Shown: piece by piece, positions 3,662 to 16,187 of the stretch
How positions within the stretch are numbered: the first letter of the stretch is position 1
Layout of the letters: each line of letters starts with the position of its first letter
Origin: Nitrospirota bacterium
GTDB lineage: Bacteria > Nitrospirota > Thermodesulfovibrionia > Thermodesulfovibrionales > UBA9159
Assembly: GCA_963699545.1 (NCBI GenBank)
Contig: CAVOUE010000004.1
Location: 128,001-192,000, forward strand
Length of the DNA stretch: 64,000 nucleotides
Direction of reading: 5' to 3'
The notes under the pieces: model-generated
Told to the model about the DNA's origin: nothing
Databases searched by the model: none
What the model saw: only the letters and a program-made list of their open reading frames with translations
Made by a program: the position numbers and the translations under genes

Positions 3662-4063
3662 TTAGATACTGTGGATCAGATAGATCGCGAGGAAGACCCC
3701 TATGGCCAGGACCGACATGGTGAGGAGTATGTCAAGGATCAGAGAGGGCCGGTAGGTATCTTCATCTATTTGCCGCTCGACCTTCTTGTACCGGATGAAA
3801 GAGAGCACGCCCATGAAGGTGCCGAGAAACACGAGGAATATTCCAAAGAATGAAGAATAACCTGTCGGCGGAGCCGCGGGCGTTTCTTTCCCGATGAAAT
3901 ACGACACCTGTTTGAGGAAGAGGGCGAACTTCTCCACAACGAAACCGAAAGCCATGATCCCTATGCTTGTCCTTATCCACGCCAGGAAAGTCCTTTCGTT
4001 CGCCATGTGAACACGGCGGTTAAGGACCTTCGGCGATTCTTTCCCTTCAGTTCTCACCGGCAT
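3662..4063 (-). CDS. DUF202 / YidH-family membrane protein
   Basis: HMANERTFLAWIRTSIGIMAFGF signature and 3 TM helices. Confidence 0.9.
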   Translation of the reverse strand: MPVRTEGKESPKVLNRRVHMANERTFLAWIRTSIGIMAFGFVVEKFALFLKQVSYFIGKETPAAPPTGYSSFFGIFLVFLGTFMGVLSFIRYKKVERQIDEDTYRPSLILDILLTMSVLAIGVFLAIYLIHSI

Positions 4064-4135
4064 ACTGGTTCTCCCCTGGATGTGCCATCCCCGACAACAG
4101 GAAGCTCTTGCCAAAGTGTCTGTAAGAGAATTATT

Positions 4136-5734
4136 TCATTGTCTCTCAAGGAGTGCATACCTTCCGTCCTCATCAAGTACATGAAAGCCCAATTGCGTAA
4201 GTCCCGCAACTTCTTTTGCCTTTGTGATCAGCAGCAATCTGCCGACCCGTGCAAGAAAGGGCTTCATCTCATCCCTGTTCCCGACCCTCACGATCCTCCG
4301 GTCCGAATAAAAGACGATGCTCGGATTGTTGATCCCGTAAACGATGATCTTCTCTTCCCTGTTCAGTCTCTCCCTGGCGTAAAGGCTGTATTTGTGCAGC
4401 GTGCCCTGAAGCTGTCGGTTAGCCATGGGCAAGGCCTTTACAGAGAGGAGCAGGAGGAAGGTGACCATCATCAGCGCTATGAGACCATAGAGCGCCCTCC
4501 CGGTAACAGCGGCGTACATGCAGATGAGTGCCAGGGCACAGGCCATAAGACCTGCGGGAAGTGTCCAGCCGGCATCGGAGATCCCGAATGTCATGAGATA
4601 TTTTTCAGAGATCAAGAAGGCAATGCCTATGGCAACCATTATAACAGCAATGCCGGCGTTTGCATATTTTCTCCACCTCCCGTTTGCTGCCATGCCTGCA
4701 GAGATGAGGATGACCGCAGCAGGTATCGCAGGGAGAATATAATTGGGGAGCTTTGTCGTTGACACGGAAAAAAAGAGGAACACGAAAGAGAACCATGTCA
4801 GGGCAAACAAATCTAGTGCCGCCCAATGATTGAGGAGCGAGGAGTTCTCTTCCGGCGGGCGCTTGACTGTCATCCGCAACTTGGTGCGGTCCTTCAACCC
4901 TTGTCTGATCCCCGCGGGCAGAAAGGCGACCCAGGGCAAAAGTCCCGCGATGAGGACGGGGACGTAGTAATAGAAAGCCCCCTTGTGGCCTGATATGACA
5001 CCTGTGTAGCGCTTGAAATGATGTTTGATGAGGAACTGCTGGATGAATTCATTGCCGTTTATTTTGAGCTGTGCAATGTACCATGGAGCCGAAAGCGCCA
5101 GGAAGAGGAGGACCCCCGGTGCGCTGAATACCCGTTTCGTCCCCTTCACCCCCTCTGTGAGCAACAGATATGCGACCGCGACCCCAAAGGGGAAGAGGAT
5201 GCCTATGAGCCCCTTTGTGAGAAAGGCAAGGGCCGAAAAGACATAGAGTCCGTAAATGTACCTGCGCGCACCTTCCCGTGATTCGAGCGAAAGGAAGAAA
5301 GAGAAAAGGGCGAGCGCTATGAAAAGGGCCAATGCCATATCCGTGACGGCTGCATGGGAATATACAAGAAAGCACACCGAAAGACTCAGGGAGAGGGCAG
5401 CGTAAGAAGCCCGTTCCGTGTCGCGGAAATGCCTGACAAAGAGGAAAAGTGTCAGACAGAGGAGAAAACCGGAGAGGGCAGAGGGAAAACGAGCACCGAA
5501 CTCGTTGACGCCGAAGACCTTGTATGAGACCGCCATCAGCCAGTAAAAGAGGATGGGTTTGTCATAGCGGTTCTCGCCGTTATACGTCGGGGTTATCCAG
5601 TCACCGCCTTCGACCATCTCCTTTGTTGCCTCGGAGAAGACAGCCTCATCAACATCAAAGAGGGTGGCGGAACCAAGCCCGAAAAAGGACATGAGAAGAG
5701 CGATGGCAACGAGAGGCAAGAGGAATTTTGTCAT
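4136..5734 (-). CDS. ArnT/GT83-like glycosyltransferase
   Basis: LFDVDEAVF, GDWITP..NG..RYDKPIL.YWL, LTKG, TKLPNYILP; multi-TM. Confidence 0.85.
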   Translation of the reverse strand: MTKFLLPLVAIALLMSFFGLGSATLFDVDEAVFSEATKEMVEGGDWITPTYNGENRYDKPILFYWLMAVSYKVFGVNEFGARFPSALSGFLLCLTLFLFVRHFRDTERASYAALSLSLSVCFLVYSHAAVTDMALALFIALALFSFFLSLESREGARRYIYGLYVFSALAFLTKGLIGILFPFGVAVAYLLLTEGVKGTKRVFSAPGVLLFLALSAPWYIAQLKINGNEFIQQFLIKHHFKRYTGVISGHKGAFYYYVPVLIAGLLPWVAFLPAGIRQGLKDRTKLRMTVKRPPEENSSLLNHWAALDLFALTWFSFVFLFFSVSTTKLPNYILPAIPAAVILISAGMAANGRWRKYANAGIAVIMVAIGIAFLISEKYLMTFGISDAGWTLPAGLMACALALICMYAAVTGRALYGLIALMMVTFLLLLSVKALPMANRQLQGTLHKYSLYARERLNREEKIIVYGINNPSIVFYSDRRIVRVGNRDEMKPFLARVGRLLLITKAKEVAGLTQLGFHVLDEDGRYALLERQ

Positions 5735-6034: not shown

Positions 6035-8626
6035 TCAGTGGCAGTACCTCCCTTCCAGGAAATCCCTTGCATACCGTTCGGCGGTCCGGTCGTCGTGCAG
6101 TTCGGCATCCAGCTGCCGTGTATACGCGATAAGCCTGCCCAACTGGTCAAGGATGACTTCCATCTCCTCCTTTCTCAGGTTCGCGATGCGCGCGATGAGA
6201 AGATCCCCTTTGGCGCTCACAGAAAAGCCGTATTCTTTTAAGACAGTGGAGATAAGGCCCACCCTTCGGGATCGTTTCGTAATGTCCGTAGCGCCCCCGG
6301 CAAAGCGGAAATAGATGTGATTGTTTCTGGCAGTCTCACTGCAGAAGGAGTCTACGACCGTGAAATGGTAACCGAATCTCAGATTCAGGTTCGCATAGTC
6401 CTTTGACGCCACCGCCAGGTTGTATGGCGCGTGAGCTCCCGCATCCGTTACGATATCAGGCATCCTCATCATGCTTGAGAGAAAGTCGTTCACTTTGAGA
6501 GAGACCGTTGTGGACTTCCAGACGCCGGGGGAGATCAGGCCCGTGACAATCGCCCGCAAGGGAAGCGAAGTGATGCCATCAAGGGTCACACTGCTCTTCT
6601 TTTGGGTGTCCAGCGCCCCCCCGATATCGACGACCACGATCTCTGCAGGTACCGGAATATCAAGTCTTACTGCGATCTGACCGCGCACCTTTGGCTCCTG
6701 TGCGTTCTCGACGAGCTCTGTCACTGCCTTCTCATGGATGAACCGGATGATGTCGTGAATGGTTTTGCACCCTTCCGGAGTGAAGTCGTCCATCAATGGG
6801 TCTACAAGATTGAGGGGGGCGATATACCTGAGAATATATCTCTTCTTCCTGAACTCGTGGAGATTCTCCATTCTCGCAGAACGTGCGGCAGCGCTCTCAA
6901 GGAGTTCTTTTCTTATTCCCCGGTATAGTGCAGCGTTGCCTTCGTCGTCCGCATCAAGAGTGATCTCCTCTCCATGGACAAGGACGACCGTCGCGTTGCC
7001 GGTGTTCACCACAGTGGGGACCTTGAACTCCCTGCAGAGGGATGCCATATGGCTCGTGGGTGTTCCAATGTCGGTTACGATGGCCGAGACATAAGGCATG
7101 ACCCGCACATAATCAGAAGAATCGTGCGCCGCTACGAGTACCGCTCCTTTGGGGAACAGGTCAAGTTCTTCGGGATGTCTTGCGATGAAAACTTTGCCGG
7201 CGCCAATACCTCGCTGAATGACGACGCCTGGATCCCGGGTCAGAACCTTTGCATTGGAAGGGCCATCTGCAGTTTCATCCAGGCTGCCCCTCCGGGACAG
7301 CCGGAGAGCGGATAATGAAGAAACAGCCGTTTCGTCCACCTTCAGAGGCCGCGTCTGAAGGATAAATATCTTTCCTTCCCTGTCGACGGCCCATTCAATG
7401 TCCTGTGGCTTCCTGAAATGTCTTTCGATGAGGATCGCCTGCCTCGCAAGTTCTTTGGCCTGCTCCCGGGTCAGGCTCTGCCTCATCTTCAGGTCGTCGG
7501 GAGTTTGTATCGTCTCAATCCCCGATTCTTTCCCTTCGATTGTCATAACCTCTTTGCCACCCGTCTTACTGTCAACGATCTCAGGGTCCGCCGTCTTCTC
7601 CAGTACGTAAAGGTCTGCATCGGAACGCCCCTCAACTACGGTGGAGCCGAGTCCCCATGTGGCATTGATAAGCACCATGTTCGGATCGCCAGCCGGATGA
7701 GAGGAGTACATTACGCCGCTGGTCGCCGCATGGACCATGACCATGCATCCTACCGCCATCTTCATCTGTCCCAGGGGATAGCCCGATTGCCGCTGATAGG
7801 ATAGAGCTCTTGGAGAAAAGAGACTGGCCACTACCTGCCGGTACGCTTCAATGACCGCACTACGTTCAAGGGGAACGTTCAATCTTGTTTCGAACTGGCC
7901 GGCAAAGGAGAAGTCGGTGTCCTCTTCCTCAGCGCTGCTTCTCACCGCGAGAAAACAGTTTTCGCTGCAGCGCGCCTTCATTCCTTTCAGTGCCTGTTCG
8001 ATGGCGTTGCCCAATTGTGACGGGATTTCAGCAGTGAGGATGGAATCATGAAGTTCCCTTAGCGCAGCGTCAGTGGTTTCCTTGTCTGTGAGCGTCTCGA
8101 TCTTTCTGTCCAGGTGGTTGTGCCTCATGAATACGTCATAGGCAGCGGTTGTCAGAACAAAGGCCGCCGGAACGTCGAGGCGCAGGTAATTTCTTACCTC
8201 AGCAAGGTTGGCGTTTTTTCCCCCAACGGCGTGGCTGTTGTCCCATGAAATGTTGTCATAAAAAACGACCATTTCACCGGGGGATGGGATATCGAAGATC
8301 ATTCTTCTGATCCGGTCGTCGATACGGTCGACCGCGTCGTGAAGGTGGGGATATTTCTCTTGCGTGAGGAGATCGAAGTTGAGCAGGGAATCACCCAGCG
8401 CCGTGGAAAGTTCCGAGTAGGCCTTCTTTACATAGGAGATGTCAAAGAGATAATCTCCCCCGAGTTTATCACCGATATCGGTGATGATCTCCAGAGCACG
8501 GTTGTTCTTCTCAAGGACCTCCTTGAAATGCCCAAAGAGAAGGTCAAAGGGCAGGATACTCCCCCTCATGCGGCGTCCAGGCCACATCATCTTCTTCAAT
8601 CGCCCTGCAAACTTATTCACCGTCAT
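6035..8626 (-). CDS. PEP/pyruvate-binding (ATP-grasp) + phospho-His swivel dikinase-like protein
   Basis: VGGKNANL, AVRSSAEEED..SFAGQF, PQDIEWA, LQTRPL, TSHMASLCREFKVP; C-terminus does not look like the PpsA barrel. Confidence 0.8.
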   Translation of the reverse strand: MTVNKFAGRLKKMMWPGRRMRGSILPFDLLFGHFKEVLEKNNRALEIITDIGDKLGGDYLFDISYVKKAYSELSTALGDSLLNFDLLTQEKYPHLHDAVDRIDDRIRRMIFDIPSPGEMVVFYDNISWDNSHAVGGKNANLAEVRNYLRLDVPAAFVLTTAAYDVFMRHNHLDRKIETLTDKETTDAALRELHDSILTAEIPSQLGNAIEQALKGMKARCSENCFLAVRSSAEEEDTDFSFAGQFETRLNVPLERSAVIEAYRQVVASLFSPRALSYQRQSGYPLGQMKMAVGCMVMVHAATSGVMYSSHPAGDPNMVLINATWGLGSTVVEGRSDADLYVLEKTADPEIVDSKTGGKEVMTIEGKESGIETIQTPDDLKMRQSLTREQAKELARQAILIERHFRKPQDIEWAVDREGKIFILQTRPLKVDETAVSSLSALRLSRRGSLDETADGPSNAKVLTRDPGVVIQRGIGAGKVFIARHPEELDLFPKGAVLVAAHDSSDYVRVMPYVSAIVTDIGTPTSHMASLCREFKVPTVVNTGNATVVLVHGEEITLDADDEGNAALYRGIRKELLESAAARSARMENLHEFRKKRYILRYIAPLNLVDPLMDDFTPEGCKTIHDIIRFIHEKAVTELVENAQEPKVRGQIAVRLDIPVPAEIVVVDIGGALDTQKKSSVTLDGITSLPLRAIVTGLISPGVWKSTTVSLKVNDFLSSMMRMPDIVTDAGAHAPYNLAVASKDYANLNLRFGYHFTVVDSFCSETARNNHIYFRFAGGATDITKRSRRVGLISTVLKEYGFSVSAKGDLLIARIANLRKEEMEVILDQLGRLIAYTRQLDAELHDDRTAERYARDFLEGRYCH

Positions 8627-8988
8627 CTGATCAGTGCACGCCGTATGGAGGCCTTCAACTCCTTGATCTTGACGGGTTTTGGAAAGAAATCATGCACTTC
8701 CGCCCTCAATGCCTCTATGGCGGCGTCAAGATTTGCAAAGGCTGTTATCATGATGACCCTGGTTTCGGGGTAAAGTTGCTTCACTGTCCGCAGGACCTCC
8801 ATGCCGTCTATGCCCTTCATTTTGAGGTCTGTGACCACAACGTCAAATTTCTGATCCTTTAAGCGCGCAAGTGCCGGCTCGGCATTCACGAACGTTTCTA
8901 CCGTGTATCCGTCCTGCTCAAGTGACATCTTCGCCATATCACCTACGATTTTTTCATCGTCGATGACCATAATCCTGTACGTGCTCAT
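8623..8988 (-). CDS. Single-domain response regulator
   Basis: IMVIDDE, VVVTDLKM, MITAF, KP. Confidence 0.9.
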   Translation of the reverse strand: MSTYRIMVIDDEKIVGDMAKMSLEQDGYTVETFVNAEPALARLKDQKFDVVVTDLKMKGIDGMEVLRTVKQLYPETRVIMITAFANLDAAIEALRAEVHDFFPKPVKIKELKASIRRALIR

Positions 8989-8997
8989 CTTTTCCTC

Positions 8998-10391
8998 CTA
9001 AGTTTTAAGGACCGGCAGCTCGATGGTGAAAGCGGTTCCGGTTCCCACGGTGCTCTCCACCCTGATGGTGCCTTTATGATTTTTTATTATTCCGTAGCTC
9101 ACGGACAGTCCCAGGCCTGTTCCCCCCACGCCCTTTGTGCTGAAGAAGGGATCAAATACGTGTGGCAGGAACTCGGCGGGTATGCCTTTGCCCGAATCCT
9201 TCACCACCACCTCCACCGCTTCCCTGCTTTTTTCATATCGCGTTGCAACTGACAATTCTCCCCCGGGTGACATTGCCTGGACGGCGTTCACCATGAGATT
9301 TACGAGGACCTGCTGCATCTGGTGGTCGTCCACGCGGACCCGGGGCAGTGCCTGTTGCCAGGGACAATTTCGTTTCAATTTTGGAGATGTCGAGCATATT
9401 CTGCACCAGCGCAAGCCCTTTGCGTACGACCCCGTTGATGTCGGTTTCCTGCAGGTTCGCCTCTTTCGGCTTCGAAAAATCAAGAAGGTTTTTCACGATC
9501 TTCCGTATCCTCTCTGTTTCCCCCTCCACCTTGTCCATGAAATCGAGTCGCTCCTCCCTGCTCAGCCTGTCGTAGAGTTCACTGTATGTCTGCGCGACCA
9601 TCGAAATGTTGTTCAGGGGGTTGGTGAGCTCATGGGCAACGCCGGCGGTGAGAATGCCGAGAGACGCCAGCTTCTTGGACTGTATGATCTCCTCTTCCCT
9701 GTTCCTGAGTTCGTCGGACATGAGATTTATCGCCTTCATCACCGAGCCGAGCTCGTCGGCAGACCTGGGGTTCTCGATCTTCCTGAAATTCCCTTCAGAT
9801 ATCAACAGGGCGAGCCGCTCGATCTCTCTCAGGGACCGAACGATCTTCTGGGAAATCAGATGGCTGATAATGACCGCAGAGAAGAGGACGGCCCAGAAGG
9901 AATAGAACAATGTCTTCTTTGCACCCGAAATGATATCATTGACCCGTTTTCTTTCCAGAATGGTAATGGTCTCGGAGAACTCCTTCAGTTTTTTCCCCTC
10001 TTCCCTGAGCTTTGTTCTCCAGTTGGACGTTTTCCGCGTTTCTTCTCACGTCCTCCACCGTGTCGGAATATCTTCCCAGGTGCGCGAGCAGCTGCCGGAG
10101 ATTGTCTTCACCGATGGCCCTGGATATGTCGTCGCTCACCCCGCCGATCGACTCCCGCGTACTATTTATCTTGTTCTTTATGTCGAAGAGGGCTGATTCA
10201 TCCCGGTAGAGGAAATAGTTCTTTTCCGAAAGCCGCATCTCAAGAAAGGAGGCGTTCAGGTCGTCGGCGATCTCCACAAACCTCAGCTTTGTGAGGATGA
10301 GATTGAGGCTCTGTATGGCAAAGAGACCTATGAGCACGATGAGAGCCATATTGAAGATGTTGGAAAGTACGATCTTTCGTTCGATCTTCAT
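8998..10391 (-). CDS. HAMP sensor histidine kinase (frameshifted in this sequence)
   Basis: Three ORF pieces: sensor LEMRLSEKNYFLY, H-box AHELTNPLNNI, and HATPase NAVQA/DSGKGI/GTGLGL. Confidence 0.8.
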
Positions 10392-10395
10392 GGTC

Positions 10396-11661
10396 TTAGT
10401 CTTTCATCTCCGCGGGAACAGGGCACCGGGGGACCTCAGACTGCTCTCTTCTCACCGGCAGGTACCACAGTACCCCGTCCGCAGTCATGCATATGCCTGC
10501 CACAATGAGCAGAGAATCCAGCACCGTTAGTATGCTGAAGCCGAAATACTGCACAAGGCCGAGTCCAAGACTCAGGAAGGAGATGCCCGAACGGATTAAT
10601 GAGAGCCCGGTCCTTGCCCGGGACTGGAGCGTGCGATAACATGCGGCCACGGTGCGCTGCCCTGCCAGGACATTCCTCTCCCGGGCAAGATGGGTGCGCT
10701 CCCTGCTCGCAGGGGACGGGTAGAGTATGGTGGAGTGGCCCGCAAGAAAATCGCCAAGACGCCCGAGCATCGTCTTTTTTGTGGGGACTGCTGTGCCCGC
10801 CTGCTCGATAAAATGATAGTCTTCAAGGAAATGCAGGGTCGCTGCCGTGACTTCCACAAGGGTCTGATGCCCCGGCGGTCTCATTCTAGATCTCCTCACC
10901 TTGAGATAGACGAACAGGCCGTAAGCGCCGATGGAAAAGCCCGCAGCCATCAGCAGCCAGAAGAGAGAAGACGTCGGCAGCAGCCGGTGGGCGCGAACAA
11001 GGGTGTCAGCCATGGCGATCATGCCGAGTCCCCACCTGAGAAGTGCAAGGCCCGTTCTCCCCTTTGCAAGGTCGTTTCTGTAGCATGCGAGCCTGGTCCT
11101 CCACTGGGCCATCGTATTGCGCCAGAAGGCCAGAGCGGTTCTTTCAGTTCCTATGAGGCGTCCCGGTTTTGCATGGAGGAAATCCTGAATGAACCACTCG
11201 ATATCCTCTCCGAGGGCCACTGAGAATTCATACTTCCCTGCCTTGATCGACCTTTTGACCTCATCCCGTACCCCGGGATCTTCGGGATTGTTTGCAACAA
11301 TGACCACCATCTCCCCGTGCCTTATTAGCGGGAACCACTGGCTCATGAAAAGCCTGTCACTGTCAAGTCCCGATAACAGTCCTGGCGGTACCGGCATTCT
11401 CTCATCATATTCCACAAAAGGACATTGATGATGTTCTGAAAGTGCCTGCAGCAGGGCACGGCGGGGAACATGGCAGTCTTTCAAGAGTATCTTCTCAAGG
11501 TCAATCCCTCTCGCCGCAGCCGCATCTTCTGCCCCACGAAGCTCCTTCTCCGTCAGGATGCCCCGGTCCAGCAGAGGGAGAAACCTTTCCGCCTGGGCAC
11601 TCCAGGCGGTTTCCTCCTGGTGAATCCTCGCCGCAGTCCTTGTCACATCAAAGTTCTTCAT
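10396..11661 (-). CDS. T2SSE_N-like domain + 2 DUF202-like modules
   Basis: LLDRGILTEKEL...ALSEHHQCPFVE...WFPL...NPED, then two RTxLAxxR...RTGL..R.G + TM-pair modules. Confidence 0.7.
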   Translation of the reverse strand: MKNFDVTRTAARIHQEETAWSAQAERFLPLLDRGILTEKELRGAEDAAAARGIDLEKILLKDCHVPRRALLQALSEHHQCPFVEYDERMPVPPGLLSGLDSDRLFMSQWFPLIRHGEMVVIVANNPEDPGVRDEVKRSIKAGKYEFSVALGEDIEWFIQDFLHAKPGRLIGTERTALAFWRNTMAQWRTRLACYRNDLAKGRTGLALLRWGLGMIAMADTLVRAHRLLPTSSLFWLLMAAGFSIGAYGLFVYLKVRRSRMRPPGHQTLVEVTAATLHFLEDYHFIEQAGTAVPTKKTMLGRLGDFLAGHSTILYPSPASRERTHLARERNVLAGQRTVAACYRTLQSRARTGLSLIRSGISFLSLGLGLVQYFGFSILTVLDSLLIVAGICMTADGVLWYLPVRREQSEVPRCPVPAEMKD

Positions 11662-13303
11662 GGCGAAAAACCACCTTTCCCCAATCACACGTGGGTCGGC
11701 CGTAATCAGGGACAACAATCTCCATATCGCCGAAACAATAGGGAAACTGCCCTTTTATTTCGTCTGCCGGGACATGCCAGTGGAGCCCGTCCGCCACGAG
11801 CGCGAGCCCGGCTATGATCAGAAAAGAATCGAAGAGTGTCCATGCGATGTTCCCGGTGCCGAAATATGCCAGAAGTGCCAGCCCCACGCCGGATATGCTC
11901 ATTCCGGTCCTAATGAAAGCCATTCCTGTCCTTGAGCGGGCCATGACCGTGCGGAGTCGTGCCATCACGTTTCTCCTCTCCGCAAGGACGGTCCTTTCAA
12001 GGGCTAATCCCGTTGTTGCCCAGATGCCGGGTGAGCAGGGCCTTGTCAGGGGAAGTGGGGATGATATCCCTTCACCATCGTGTCTTTTGTGAGCAGCGGG
12101 AAAGACAACGTCCCAGATCGTTGTTTTCTCCCCTGTCCTGATGACCGATGCAAAGCTGTCCCTGCCTGCCCGCCGCCCGGGGAGATACCAGTAAAACCCT
12201 TCCATGAGCATCAAAGAGCCCGTAAGGATAAGGGCCGCATAGAAAATCGTCCAGAGGCCCCCGGGGAACTGCCTCAACAGCGCAATCCCAAGTCCGGCGA
12301 AAGCGATCCCCGTCCGTGTAAAAGCAAGTCCTGTGCGGGCGCGTGCCATGATTGTCCGGTAGCATGAAAGGCTTGTCCTTTCCTCAGCGAGATCGGTCCT
12401 GTCGCTGGCCAGGAACCTGCGCCTCATCACCGGTGAAAGATCGCGCCAGCCGGTGCGCAGTACATCTGCACCTTCCACCTGTTCTGTTCTGGTAAACACA
12501 GGGTCACTCCCGGGATTTGAGACTCCGAGGACAGTCGTGCCCCCTGTGGACTCGGTGGAAGCACAATAGAGTTTTTTCCCGGAGATCTTTCTGGCAGGGA
12601 CATACCAGACAAGGCCGTCGACAGTCATAACGACACCAGCCGCGAGAAGCAGGGCCTCAAATATGGTGAGATATCCGATCCCCAAGATTCTCAAGAGCAC
12701 AAGGGCGACTGCCATAAAAGATACGCCTGTGCGGATGAATGCAAGCCCTGTCCTTCCCTTTGACAGGGACGTCCGGTAACATGCCATGAGTGACCGCCTT
12801 TCCGCGAGGAATGTCCTTACCTTGGCGAGGGGCGTCCTGCCCCCCGAGGGAGGAAAATGGGGATTCAGATCATAGCTGTTTTCGATGATCCTGATGAGAT
12901 CAGAGGGCAGGGCAACAATGTAGTCGATCCGGCCAACCTGCAGGGTCTTTCTGATGTCCTCAACCACCAGAGGGTCATCCGGATCATATGTAATTACTTC
13001 AGCCCGTTCCTCCGTCACGGACAGCGGAAACCAGAGGGCGCTTTTTTGCCGCTCCATATCCATGCGTTTGGTGATGAAGTGGGAGGCCGCAATATTCTCG
13101 TCATACTCCATGAAGGGATAGCCGTAATACTCGGACAGGCAGAAGAGCACTTCATGTTTCGGGAGCCCGTGGCCGATCAACACGTCCTCGGGGTATTGCC
13201 CGGAATCTTCAGCTTCCTTCATCAGCCTTTCGAACTCCTCTGACGTAAGAAGTTCCTTTCTTAAGAGTCTTTCAAACTTCCTTTTTTTCATTGTGTTGCA
13301 CAT
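11648..13303 (-). CDS. T2SSE_N-like domain + 3 DUF202-like modules
   Basis: LLRKELLTSEEF...LSEYYGYPFME...WFPL...DPDD, then three RTxLAExR...RTG.AF.RTG + TM-pair modules. Confidence 0.7.
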   Translation of the reverse strand: MCNTMKKRKFERLLRKELLTSEEFERLMKEAEDSGQYPEDVLIGHGLPKHEVLFCLSEYYGYPFMEYDENIAASHFITKRMDMERQKSALWFPLSVTEERAEVITYDPDDPLVVEDIRKTLQVGRIDYIVALPSDLIRIIENSYDLNPHFPPSGGRTPLAKVRTFLAERRSLMACYRTSLSKGRTGLAFIRTGVSFMAVALVLLRILGIGYLTIFEALLLAAGVVMTVDGLVWYVPARKISGKKLYCASTESTGGTTVLGVSNPGSDPVFTRTEQVEGADVLRTGWRDLSPVMRRRFLASDRTDLAEERTSLSCYRTIMARARTGLAFTRTGIAFAGLGIALLRQFPGGLWTIFYAALILTGSLMLMEGFYWYLPGRRAGRDSFASVIRTGEKTTIWDVVFPAAHKRHDGEGISSPLPLTRPCSPGIWATTGLALERTVLAERRNVMARLRTVMARSRTGMAFIRTGMSISGVGLALLAYFGTGNIAWTLFDSFLIIAGLALVADGLHWHVPADEIKGQFPYCFGDMEIVVPDYGRPTCDWGKVVFRHEEL

Positions 13304-13531: not shown

Positions 13532-14431
13532 TCACTTCACCACGAGGATGGGACAGGCGGCATGGGTAATTACCCGTTCTGTGCTGCTGCCCATGATCGC
13601 CTTGTTCACGCCGCTCCAGCCGCATGTTCCCATAACGATGAGATCATTTCCCTGCCTGCCTGCGGTCTCAACTATCTTGTCTCCGGCGTGTCCCTGTTCC
13701 ATGACCGTTGTTATGGACACGCCCTCTCCTGAGGCCAGCTCTTTCGCCTTGTCCAGAATCTTTTGCGCCTCCGCGTGAAGGCTTTTCTCTATGGAAGCGG
13801 TCCTGAAGAACTCCACCATCTCCTCATACCGGGGGATCACGTAGATCGCGGTAATCTCAGCACCATCGAGTTTCGAAAGCTCACAGGCCCTCTTAAGGGC
13901 CTTTTTGCTGAAGTCCGAGCCGTCAAAGGGGACGAGAATGGACCCGTATGTGCCCGTGCATTCAGTACAGGGCTTCTTCACCACGAGGACATCAGTGGTG
14001 GAATTGATAATGACATGGGACGTCACGCTGCCCATGAGGAGTCTGTTCAGTCCCTTCCTCCCGTACGTGCCCAATACAATAAGGTCCGCCTCTTTCCCCT
14101 TTGCGACATCAACAATGACCGTGGGCGGATCGCCCTCGCAGAGCAATGATTGCACTTCTACTCCCCATCCCGACGTGAGCATTTCCTTTGTCTGGACGCA
14201 GACCTTTTCTCCGATCTTGAGACGCTTGTCCAGCTGGTCCGGAGCTATTCCGAATTCCTCTTCATCAAAGAACACCGCATGCACGAGGATGATCTTCCCC
14301 CCGTGCCTCTTGATCCAGTGCGCGGCCTCGGTGAGCGCCGCCTTGCTGGAAATGGATTCATCAAAACCAACGACGATATTCTCATATATGGTGTTCACCG
14401 CTTTATCCACCTGCTGTGCAGATATTCTCAT
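13532..14431 (-). CDS. Tandem-domain universal stress protein
   Basis: NIVVGFDES, DLIVLGTYGR..LMGSV, ILVPFDGS, IMGSS...ACPILVV. Confidence 0.9.
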   Translation of the reverse strand: MRISAQQVDKAVNTIYENIVVGFDESISSKAALTEAAHWIKRHGGKIILVHAVFFDEEEFGIAPDQLDKRLKIGEKVCVQTKEMLTSGWGVEVQSLLCEGDPPTVIVDVAKGKEADLIVLGTYGRKGLNRLLMGSVTSHVIINSTTDVLVVKKPCTECTGTYGSILVPFDGSDFSKKALKRACELSKLDGAEITAIYVIPRYEEMVEFFRTASIEKSLHAEAQKILDKAKELASGEGVSITTVMEQGHAGDKIVETAGRQGNDLIVMGTCGWSGVNKAIMGSSTERVITHAACPILVVK

Positions 14432-14463: not shown

Positions 14464-15273
14464 TTAGTGCGCCCCGCCTCCTTTCCTGAATACCATGCCT
14501 ACACCGAAACCGGCAGCCAAGGCTGCCATGATCGAGACGATGCCATACAGCGCCCCGTTATTTCTTGCCATGCCCGCGAGGGACTTTACCATGCCGACCT
14601 GCTCCACAGAGACGTGGGTCTCTGCGGTTTCGACCACCTTGTGGTTCTTCACCGCGTATACGGTGATCGTGTAATCGTCCGGACGCGCCTGATAGGGCCA
14701 GTCCAGGAGCACGTAATAGTTCTGACTCCCGTTGTTTTCCGTCAGGTTGATCTTCCCGGATGTCACCGAGTAAAGGGATGACGACTCCTTGAATTTTACG
14801 AACTCACCAAACCACTTCTCTTTTTCTCCCGCATCGGCCACGGGTTCCATTTCAGCATGTTTCGCCAGGGCCGGGTACCCGATCACCTTCTTGTCCATCT
14901 CATCAGTGCTCAGGATGTCCTCGATCTTCCTTGTGCTGTGAAGGGAATAAAGGTTCGGCACCTTGTTAAAGGTCAATTGTCCCACATTCATCCATAACAC
15001 TCCTGCCACCTTGCCCTTCTTGCGCAAGGCCTGTTCCCCTTCAGCAGAAGCGATCTTGATGATAAGGTCAGTGCCGGGATCGGATACGCCTCTCACGCTC
15101 ACTGAACCCCCGTGGTAGAAAAAGTCGATCGAGATATGGTCATGATTTGCCTTTGCGGTGAGTTGCGCCGACGCCCTGTCGGACACGATGAACGTTGACA
15201 GCAGGCAAAGAATGACGGTGCTGAACCATAAAGGTACGTTGAACATTGAACGTTGAACGTTGCAGTTTTCCAT
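14464..15273 (-). CDS. TIGR02186-like exported/membrane partner of TauE
   Basis: ISIDFFYHG, LRKKGKVAGVLWMN, VPNLYSL, C-terminal TM and RKGGGAH; ATG overlaps the TauE stop (TAATG). Confidence 0.65.
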   Translation of the reverse strand: MENCNVQRSMFNVPLWFSTVILCLLSTFIVSDRASAQLTAKANHDHISIDFFYHGGSVSVRGVSDPGTDLIIKIASAEGEQALRKKGKVAGVLWMNVGQLTFNKVPNLYSLHSTRKIEDILSTDEMDKKVIGYPALAKHAEMEPVADAGEKEKWFGEFVKFKESSSLYSVTSGKINLTENNGSQNYYVLLDWPYQARPDDYTITVYAVKNHKVVETAETHVSVEQVGMVKSLAGMARNNGALYGIVSIMAALAAGFGVGMVFRKGGGAH

Positions 15274-16187
15274 TAGTGTCCTCCTCCCTGGTAAGAGCAA
15301 CGACGGGCTTAGGGTAAGATCAAAGACCATCTTTACAGTTACCAGAAGCACGATGCCTGCAAGGATTATCTTGAGCTGGTCTGCCTTGAGCTTCCGTCCG
15401 AAGACCGCGCCGACCTGGGCGCCTAAGGTTGAACCGATCAGAAGGAGTACTGCGAGGATAAAATCCACGCTGTGGTTCGTATAAGCCTGAAGAAAGGTGA
15501 CCTCAATGCAGTTAAAGAGGATCTGAAAAAGACTGGTGCCGACGACAACATGCATCGGCATCCTGAGGATATAGACCATCACAGGGACCATCAGAAAACC
15601 GCCTCCTACGCCCATGACAGCAGCAAGGATTCCGACAAAGCCTCCGAAGATGACCGGGACGAGCACGGAATGGGTGACCCCTGATTTTTCAAAACGGGTC
15701 TGCAGAGGAAGAGACTTAAGAAATTTCGCCATGCGCGATTCCTTCTCAGGTGCCGTGTCCTCGATCTTCTTTTTCTTCATGCTCTGAGGCTCTCGATAAA
15801 CATATAGGTGCCCACAATCCCGAGCATCAGCACATAGGTTATCTTTATGACAAAGTCCGCATTGCCCATGGCCTTGAGGATCTTTATGCCCTGGACGCCT
15901 GCAAGACCGCCGGCAAACCCCCCGACCAGGAGATAAAGCCCCATCTTGAAATCAACATTGCCGATCTTCCAGTGGGCATATGTCCCTGAGGTCGATGCAG
16001 CGACGATCTGGTTCGAATCCGTTGCAGCGGCAACGGTTGAGGGTATACCGAACATTATCAGAAGCGGTGTCATAAGAAAACCTCCGCCTACTCCGAAGAG
16101 GCCTGAGAGCAGACCGACTGCGAGGCCCAGCCCCACAGGGATTAAGACGTTAATACTTGTTAATGCTACCGGCAGATAAAGATACAT
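15273..16187 (-). CDS. TauE/SafE-family exporter (frameshifted near 15780 and 15290)
   Basis: SGLFGVGGGFLMTP and MGVGGGFLMVP halves; probable true end ...QGGGH*. Confidence 0.8.

Follow-up and report, generated by a model that had tools for sequence, protein, structure and literature searches.

DUF202/YidH is a large bacterial protein family of uncharacterised function, and its only characterised relatives line the pore of the eukaryotic polyphosphate complex VTC (three Vtc1, Vtc3 or Vtc2, and Vtc4; PDB 7YTJ, 8I6V). The VTC subunits carry the DUF202 annotation (PMC7283521). According to PMC9911596 and bioRxiv 10.1101/2023.01.27.525886, the subunits have three membrane helices each, five first transmembrane helices (TM1) line the pore, and Vtc1 K24 and R31 form, together with their equivalents in Vtc3 and Vtc4, two positive rings that are required for polyphosphate accumulation. 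The cytoplasmic entrance of VTC is under the control of attached regulatory domains. The literature on YidH is limited to its mention as a screening candidate, and D-alanine levels were not lowered by it (PMC10299036). The present work concerns a pair of overlapping genes, here called gene 1 and gene 2, in a stretch of 64,000 nucleotides (the window; all coordinates refer to it) from contig CAVOUE010000004.1, positions 128,001 to 192,000, of a Nitrospirota bacterium of the order Thermodesulfovibrionales. The host is an uncultured relative of sulfate reducers, and its genome assembly comprises 3.04 Mb in 13 contigs and is 86.9% complete. Because the two products carry five DUF202-type units with unbroken arginine ladders, a regulated, VTC-like, five-unit cationic conduit is the best available reading of the pair, a tentative one that falls slightly short of an even chance.

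The gene pair and its arginine ladders

The two genes and the repeated modules in their products are located as follows.

11648..13303, minus strand: gene 1, 551 amino acids, an MshEN-fold domain and then three arginine-ladder DUF202 hairpins (open reading frame, Pfam, AlphaFold)
10396..11661, minus strand: gene 2, 421 amino acids, an MshEN-fold domain and then two arginine-ladder hairpins
11648..11661, minus strand: 14 nucleotides shared by the end of gene 1 (stop) and the start of gene 2 (ATG), read from the sequence
12581..12838, minus strand: gene 1 module 1 (residues 156-241), Arg 156/163/170/177/184/191 and then a two-helix membrane hairpin
12128..12433, minus strand: gene 1 module 2 (residues 291-392), Arg 295/302/309/316/323/330 and then a hairpin
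11747..12013, minus strand: gene 1 module 3 (residues 431-519), Arg 437/444/451/458/465 and then a hairpin; the best Pfam DUF202 stretch
10882..11148, minus strand: gene 2 module 1 (residues 172-260), Arg 174/181/188/195/202/209; the most divergent module
10441..10701, minus strand: gene 2 module 2 (residues 321-407), Arg 322/329/336/343/350/357

The open reading frame listing opens gene 2 at a TTG at 11718. An alternative ATG at 11661 has the ribosome-binding site GGAAAGGTGG 9 nucleotides upstream (11671-11680), and for this reason the start was set at 11661, which gives a protein of 421 amino acids. The 14-nucleotide overlap and the ribosome-binding site are together the usual sign of coupled translation, so genes 1 and 2 are likely to be translationally coupled.

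Conservation was followed in alignments of 128 gene 1 family and 127 gene 2 family sequences, with the window protein counted in each. The heptad-spaced Arg residues occupy 6+6+5 positions in gene 1 and 6+6 in gene 2, and each of these 29 positions is Arg in 99-100% of the sequences, a conservation that is far beyond chance. The heptad consensus is R-T-x-(L/M)-A-x-x, with Arg at position a and Leu/Ala at d/e. All six Arg of gene 1 module 1 are 100% conserved and are followed in phase by A/T198 and R205 (92%); in module 2 the Arg are 99-100% conserved and are followed by G337 (99%) and R344 (98%). Seven residues beyond the ladder, in phase and into the membrane helix, the five modules have small residues (A/T, G, A/S, A and S/G in turn), and fourteen residues beyond it they have R in 92%, R in 98%, V, R in 93% and H in 55% (H/Q/R). 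Pairwise identity among the five modules is 25-49%, and the periplasmic loops of the hairpins are only 4-7 residues long. The original prediction had described an Arg at every seventh residue, running into a transmembrane hairpin, and had quoted three peptides as examples. The peptides are found in the two proteins, and the spacing was confirmed by the alignments. In structure models the ladder helix is continuous with TM1.

The original prediction had also counted 3+2 modules in the two genes and had proposed, as a check, to see whether homologous pairs keep this total. A module profile was run on 78 loci, taken from contigs of one genome per species, and on the window, 79 in all. A three-module gene next to a two-module gene was found in 69/79 loci, one of which (L018) has an extra, unrelated small DUF202 gene 6 kb away. 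Four loci (L029, L030, L051, L083) have an extra three-module paralogue and are thus 3+3+2, and one more (L028) has this arrangement with the second long gene broken in frame. The pair is cut by a contig end in two loci (L025, L054) and has frame breaks in three (L052, L066, L084). No intact pair with a module count other than 3+2 was seen in the 79 loci, and the total is thus conserved. An apparent gene 2-kinase fusion in L084 was discarded as evidence, since it is a frame break inside module 2. The extra three-hairpin paralogue adjoins the 3+2 pair directly on its upstream side. Yeast Vtc2 and Vtc3 are alternative subunits of VTC, and by analogy the paralogue may be an alternative subunit as well.

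Gene 2 adjoins gene 1 in 77/78 loci, and the single exception stops at a contig edge. A tree was built from 115 modules of 23 species. Four of the module classes are clades in it, with support of 0.97-1.0, and the fifth, that of gene 1 module 1, is paraphyletic with respect to gene 2 module 1 alone. These separate classes indicate that the five module positions have each been retained as distinct. No natural fusion with more than three modules occurs among the 150 best cluster representatives, and a search for longer relatives gave one protein with two modules, P0391, so the lack of a five-module fusion is weak evidence. P0391 (1646 amino acids, from one metagenome contig) has a gene 1-like start, 40% identical, with a partial MshEN domain and two ladder hairpins, and continues into a long region with a CHAT protease-like domain at its end.

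The family is narrow, since a search among 1.84 billion cluster representatives gave only 285 clusters at E <= 0.001. The pair is common in Thermodesulfovibrionales, with 26/151 genomes sampled, and is present also in some Desulfobacterota; pairs from more than 250 species are available. Orthologue lengths are nearly constant, about 547 amino acids for gene 1 and 400-420 for gene 2. The source annotations of the homologues are limited to "DUF202/YidH" or "type II secretion protein".

Relation to DUF202 proteins and the VTC pore

The Pfam model for DUF202 (PF02656) matches gene 1 in three stretches with 47.6 bits against a cut-off of 23.4. Gene 2 is matched in two stretches with 17.4 bits, under the cut-off; its modules align with the three of gene 1, and many gene 2 orthologues carry a precomputed PF02656 label. 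The window also holds a canonical member of the family.

3662..4114, minus strand: canonical small DUF202 protein (Pfam E 1.6e-20) with three hydrophobic stretches

A profile of the five modules aligned with this small protein in the same register (hhalign probability 89%, E 2e-6). R451, R458 and R465 of gene 1 pair with R34, R41 and R48 of the small protein, in agreement with the Pfam coordinates, and the last three Arg of each ladder fall on DUF202 profile positions 1, 8 and 15, the ERT-x-LAW-x-RT signature at the start of TM1. The four best PDB matches of the small protein are Vtc1 chains (8i6v_A, 7ytj_A, 9umg_A and 9umg_B), at weak E-values of 0.083-0.77, and in this profile alignment its R34, R41 and R48 pair with Vtc1 K24, R31 and N38. 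Ladder positions -14 and -7, which are Arg in 99-100% of sequences in all five modules, thus correspond to K24 and R31 of Vtc1. By alignment the pair has the counterparts of the two basic rings, seven residues apart at the cytoplasmic vestibule, that are typical of VTC, with the reservation that the Vtc1 match is weak (E 0.08). From this register each ladder would hold both VTC rings, a further one deeper within the membrane, and three more towards the cytoplasm. On these alignments the homology of the modules to DUF202 and, through DUF202, to the VTC membrane domain holds up. The VTC-like character proposed in the original prediction is therefore retained as far as DUF202 homology is concerned; its polyphosphate cargo is weakened, and no known polyphosphate polymerase was found in the host genome.

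VTC and the pair thus belong to the same PF02656 family, have five units, carry heptad-spaced basic residues on the first helix and place non-identical units in fixed positions. The agreement with the five DUF202 units of a VTC complex is one of count only, as seen in the 69/79 loci. Unlike VTC, the pair distributes its units over two chains (3+2) rather than five, would have five or six basic rings instead of two, reaching about 3 nm past the VTC-equivalent region, and lacks SPX and TTM polymerase domains, in whose place it has MshEN-fold domains. The bacterial DUF202/YidH proteins are single, small and three-helical, and their TM1-start signature is the part that aligns with the last three ladder Arg. 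Compared with them, the unit in the pair stands in tandem, has lost the third helix, has extended its ladder from three Arg to six and is fused to an MshEN-fold domain.

A further group of relatives, from metagenomes, has a single DUF202 hairpin. In P0316, P0323, P0328, P0330, P0372, P0296 and P0310 it is preceded by 12-20 uninterrupted R-T-x-L-A-x-x heptads, and P0296 and P0310 run on into a receiver (REC) domain. These proteins share with the pair the heptad, the hairpin and a link to receiver domains; they differ in having one hairpin per chain, much longer ladders and no MshEN domain. With one hairpin per chain, they must homo-oligomerise.

Single-chain models were built with AlphaFold2 from the family alignments (pLDDT 85.8 and pTM 0.80 for gene 1; pLDDT 82.1 and pTM 0.65 for gene 2). 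In each module the hairpin is modelled as a continuous helix of 51-55 residues, which comprises the ladder and TM1 (156-207, 291-345 and 431-481 in gene 1; 172-223 and 321-373 in gene 2), followed by a helix of 29-41 residues. In designed alpha-helical barrels such a heptad pattern suits wide bundles with a lumen and not tight cores of two to four helices. By this analogy the Arg at a and the Leu/Ala at d/e would fit a wide bundle with a lumen. The SLAC1/TehA anion channels arrange five helical hairpins of a single chain around one pore, and they resemble the pair in design, with tandem helical hairpins that have inner and outer helices. Unlike the pair, they have no arginine ladder and there is no sequence relation; the structural match of gene 1 to TehA (3m71_A, Z 7.3, 165 aligned, rmsd 4.2) lies within the noise for helical proteins.

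Do the five hairpins form one ring? They may instead form separate bundles, a 2:2 assembly with ten hairpins, or homo-oligomers, with five as an accident of duplication. Each protein alone gives a confident, compact model, the helical part of gene 2 resembles syntaxin-like and four-helix bundles (Z <= 9.9, within helical noise), five loci have two three-hairpin genes, and the single-hairpin relatives must assemble with themselves. The strict adjacency and overlap of the two genes, the conservation of each module in its own class and the lack of any intact pair with another count speak against such arrangements, which are considered unlikely.

The N-terminal domains and the signalling neighbours

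Each of the two proteins begins with a domain of the type found in pilus and secretion ATPases.

12869..13291, minus strand: gene 1 N-domain (residues 5-145), MshEN/GSPII fold, c-di-GMP motif lost
11173..11598, minus strand: gene 2 N-domain (residues 22-163), MshEN fold, c-di-GMP motif lost

The Pfam MshEN model (PF05157) matches gene 1 with 30.1 bits and gene 2 with 31.0 bits (cut-off 23.1), and in fold searches the N-domains align with MshE (5htl_B) at Z 13.9, rmsd 3.3 over 138 residues for gene 1, where Foldseek agrees, and at Z 14.3, rmsd 3.4 over 139 residues for gene 2. The gene 1 family profile matched PilF in the PDB (E 8e-11). No ATPase domain was found by Pfam in either protein. The C-terminal T2SSE ATPase domain that defines the assembly ATPases of type II secretion systems and type IV pili (GspE/PilB) is thus missing, and a match to TIGR02538 (PilB) is restricted to model positions 4-137 of 564, with 22.3 bits against a cut-off of 675. 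An MshEN-like domain without an ATPase had been noticed in the original prediction, and this is borne out.

The signature of MshEN receptors for cyclic di-GMP (c-di-GMP) is given in PMC5013675 as a tandem 24-residue motif, RLGxx(L/V/I)(L/V/I)xxG(L/V/I)(L/V/I)xxxxLxxxLxxQ. None of the 128 gene 1 and 127 gene 2 orthologues fits this motif in the strict or the relaxed form of that paper, and the NCBIfam motif model NF053729 gives gene 2 15.6 bits against a cut-off of 38 and does not match gene 1. The motif had been called degenerate beforehand, and the orthologues agree. For these reasons the N-domains are not canonical c-di-GMP receptors. They have the same fold as the MshEN/GSPII domains of MshE, PilF and PilB and exceed the PF05157 cut-off, but they differ from them in lacking the motif (0/255 orthologues) and in having no ATPase behind them. 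In gene 1 the last residue of the N-domain is 145, and the ladder helix begins at 156. As the N-domains stop about 10 residues before the first ladder Arg, they must sit at the cytoplasmic tips of the ladders.

The gene pair lies in an operon with the conserved order TauE permease, Alph_Pro_TM, tandem universal stress protein, gene 1, gene 2, histidine kinase, orphan receiver and PEP-synthase-like dikinase. In the window the neighbours are as follows.

14464..16187, minus strand: TauE/TSUP anion permease and Alph_Pro_TM protein, upstream members, frames disturbed in the assembly
13532..14431, minus strand: tandem universal stress protein, upstream operon member
8998..10391, minus strand: sensor histidine kinase (membrane sensor, HAMP, HisKA, HATPase_c), in three frames here and intact in relatives
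8623..8988, minus strand: orphan receiver (REC only, 121 amino acids), 75-89% identical in pair-carrying genomes
6035..8626, minus strand: PEP-synthase-like dikinase (863 amino acids), ATP-grasp and swivel His, no PEP/pyruvate-binding domain

Only loci with enough flanking sequence were placed in the denominators of the neighbour counts. The kinase lies directly downstream of the pair in 54/64 loci, the receiver (at least 60% identical) is found in 55/64 and both in 53/64. The other members are less constant: the dikinase is found in 37/53 loci, TauE in 36/63, and Alph_Pro_TM and the universal stress protein in 34/63 each. Loci from Desulfobacterota retain the pair alone or, more usually, together with the kinase and receiver; their other flanks are unrelated. 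Across the 151 genomes of the order, which are related and not independent, 22 have the pair and a receiver orthologue (75-100% identical), 4 the pair only, 1 the receiver only and 124 neither. It is shown by these counts that the pair is co-inherited with the kinase and receiver.

The only receiver-only genome, G040 (99% complete, from another family of the order), has kept the rest of the operon and has a second TauE paralogue exactly at the site of the pair (locus L095, G040:C2:37000-54000; open reading frame 10347-11255, minus strand; 63-69% identical). The gene pair was not found anywhere in this genome. Since a second TauE stands in its place, this exchange hints that the pair has a transport-type job or is an exchangeable membrane module of a signalling operon.

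Could the pair be a signalling device through which nothing crosses the membrane? It could work beside the adjacent histidine kinase, as a co-sensor or as the output partner, and use a rigid, arginine-striped stalk to sense or bind anionic lipids, membrane potential or a cytoplasmic polyanion and relay this to the kinase or receiver. Wide conservation among its partners is limited to signalling proteins, namely the kinase and receiver that follow it in 53/64 loci and are inherited with it. The operon has in addition the universal stress protein and the dikinase. In the latter, similarity to PEP synthases is confined to the ATP-grasp and swivel-His domains, and a language-model atlas likens its final 300 residues to GHKL (HATPase_c_2) proteins (0.93), which is no more than a lead. 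In some relatives the ladder hairpin is fused to REC, MshEN-type domains dock proteins in pilus and secretion ATPases (PilB-PilZ and EpsE-EpsL are among the structural matches), and the short periplasmic loops imply little surface on the outside. However, a signalling role does not account for the maintenance of exactly five hairpins, each as a class of its own, for the extension of the Arg face through TM1 with small residues, or for the homology of the modules to a domain whose sole characterised role is to line a pore. In some loci (e.g. L037 and L088) the pair stands without an adjacent kinase or receiver, and four genomes have the pair without a receiver orthologue. A purely signalling role is judged rather unlikely, and the regulated conduit is preferred to it.

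Proposed mechanism and candidate cargo

We infer a ring with lumen-facing Arg that conducts and is gated by the receiver. The products of genes 1 and 2 would be made together and would combine in a 1:1 complex of the cytoplasmic membrane, all of whose termini would face the cytoplasm. The five hairpins would be arranged in a ring, as the five DUF202 domains are in VTC, in which the five ladder and TM1 helices are the inner ring and the TM2 helices the outer ring. Up to six Arg rings would be stacked on one helix face. Two of these may be the counterparts of Vtc1 K24/R31, one may lie deeper in the membrane and three may extend about 3 nm further into the cytoplasm, and within the membrane this face would go on with small residues, followed by a partial Arg/His ring. 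An anion or polyanion could then pass through the resulting cationic conduit. The MshEN-fold domain of each protein, joined by about 10 residues to the cytoplasmic tip of one ladder and with the c-di-GMP site lost, could act as a cap or as a docking site; its most likely binding partner would be the phosphorylated form of the orphan receiver from the neighbouring two-component system.

Several observations weigh against the VTC-like conduit. The link to Vtc1 consists of weak E-values (0.08-0.8) and common Pfam membership. PDB profile searches with the gene 1 family or with the five modules reached no VTC chain, and the five-module search gave two chance matches only, so that, of the checks proposed against PF02656 and the VTC structures, those made directly with the pair matched DUF202 and reached no VTC chain. 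The fold searches (Foldseek with gene 1, VIA-align with both models) likewise gave no VTC chain. The helical parts match only generic helical repeats at Z <= 11.8, which is within the noise for helical proteins, and the top value came from a three-repeat piece of a designed toroid matched by gene 1. The outcome of the fold searches is therefore neutral on VTC. In the AlphaFold models each module has two membrane helices, as opposed to the three of a DUF202 domain in the VTC subunits and in the window's canonical DUF202 protein. Nor do all loci total five hairpins, because five of them hold a second three-hairpin gene. The receiver domain of P0296 is 46% identical to the operon receiver, barely above the 37-44% of unrelated receivers. 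The REC fusion therefore ties domain types and not orthologues; it was dropped as evidence of orthology and is kept as a domain-level hint only. Lastly, PPK1, PPK2, VTC (PF09359) and CYTH (PF01928) were not found in the 86.9%-complete host genome.

This last result bears on the cargo. One reading, in line with the original prediction of a possible VTC-like polyanion channel, is that the pair is a genuine analogue of VTC, through which polyphosphate made by a coupled enzyme would be exported or sequestered. The membrane domain family and the count of five are the same, both VTC basic rings are kept and more are added, the host genome has a Ppx/GppA-family gene, and in 37/53 loci the operon has a dikinase that uses ATP, carries a phospho-histidine swivel and lacks a pyruvate-binding domain. 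A VTC-type system also couples a polyphosphate polymerase and an SPX sensor to the pore, and no SPX or polymerase domain was found by Pfam in gene 1 or gene 2. Among 41 genomes of the order (G000-G040), most of which are more than 90% complete, PPK1 was found in one (88% complete, with 6% contamination) and PPK2 in none, and this scarcity is independent of whether the pair is carried. From these genomes it seems that Thermodesulfovibrionales are without the usual polyphosphate kinases. The Desulfobacterota loci have no dikinase and no phosphate-related neighbours, and the replacement of the pair in G040 is a TauE-type permease. A true VTC analogue is therefore quite improbable.

Since PPK1, PPK2, VTC and CYTH were not found in the host and the kinases hardly at all in the order, polyphosphate is not supported as the cargo, and that this polymer in particular passes through the conduit is decidedly doubtful, although an uncharacterised synthase could still make it. 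The TauE family is named for sulfite and sulfonate export. The TauE neighbourhood thus suggests sulfur oxyanions as much as polyphosphate, with which an inorganic or sulfur oxyanion is at least on a par in this context. A more far-reaching proposal is that the pair and the dikinase together are a bacterial counterpart of the whole of VTC, in which the dikinase is a PPK-independent synthase that feeds phosphate or another anionic polymer into the five-hairpin arginine tunnel under two-component control. This is highly speculative and very improbable.

No description of the MshEN-DUF202 architecture or of a bacterial DUF202 function was found in the literature, in a search that left the supplementary tables of PMC5013675 aside. 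With its fixed set of five units, 29 invariant Arg and an identifiable regulatory partner, the pair is the clearest bacterial test case for DUF202. If a ring forms and conducts, regulated bacterial channels for anions or polyanions would gain a new class, DUF202 would have a function, and the design of the VTC pore would be older than the eukaryotes. If the arginine helices are a stalk and not a pore, they would still be a new kind of membrane signalling element.

The small DUF202 gene at 3662-4114 adjoins a PMT_2 glycosyltransferase (4136-5734, minus strand) a few kilobases downstream of the operon. The same small gene is found near the operon in L018 (69% identical) and in G040 (80% identical).

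The kinase gene has frame shifts near 9990-10012 and 9350-9492, and TauE is split near an A-run at about 15786, with its second half running on into the Alph_Pro_TM gene; in relatives these are separate intact genes. One contig of a related strain has an extra A behind 15786. Related contigs from three runs (90-99% alike) give partial coverage and do not bridge the kinase frame breaks. The breaks in the kinase and TauE are probably homopolymer indel errors of the assembly; that they are real pseudogenes is less likely. Genes 1 and 2, the receiver, the universal stress protein and the dikinase are intact in the assembly.

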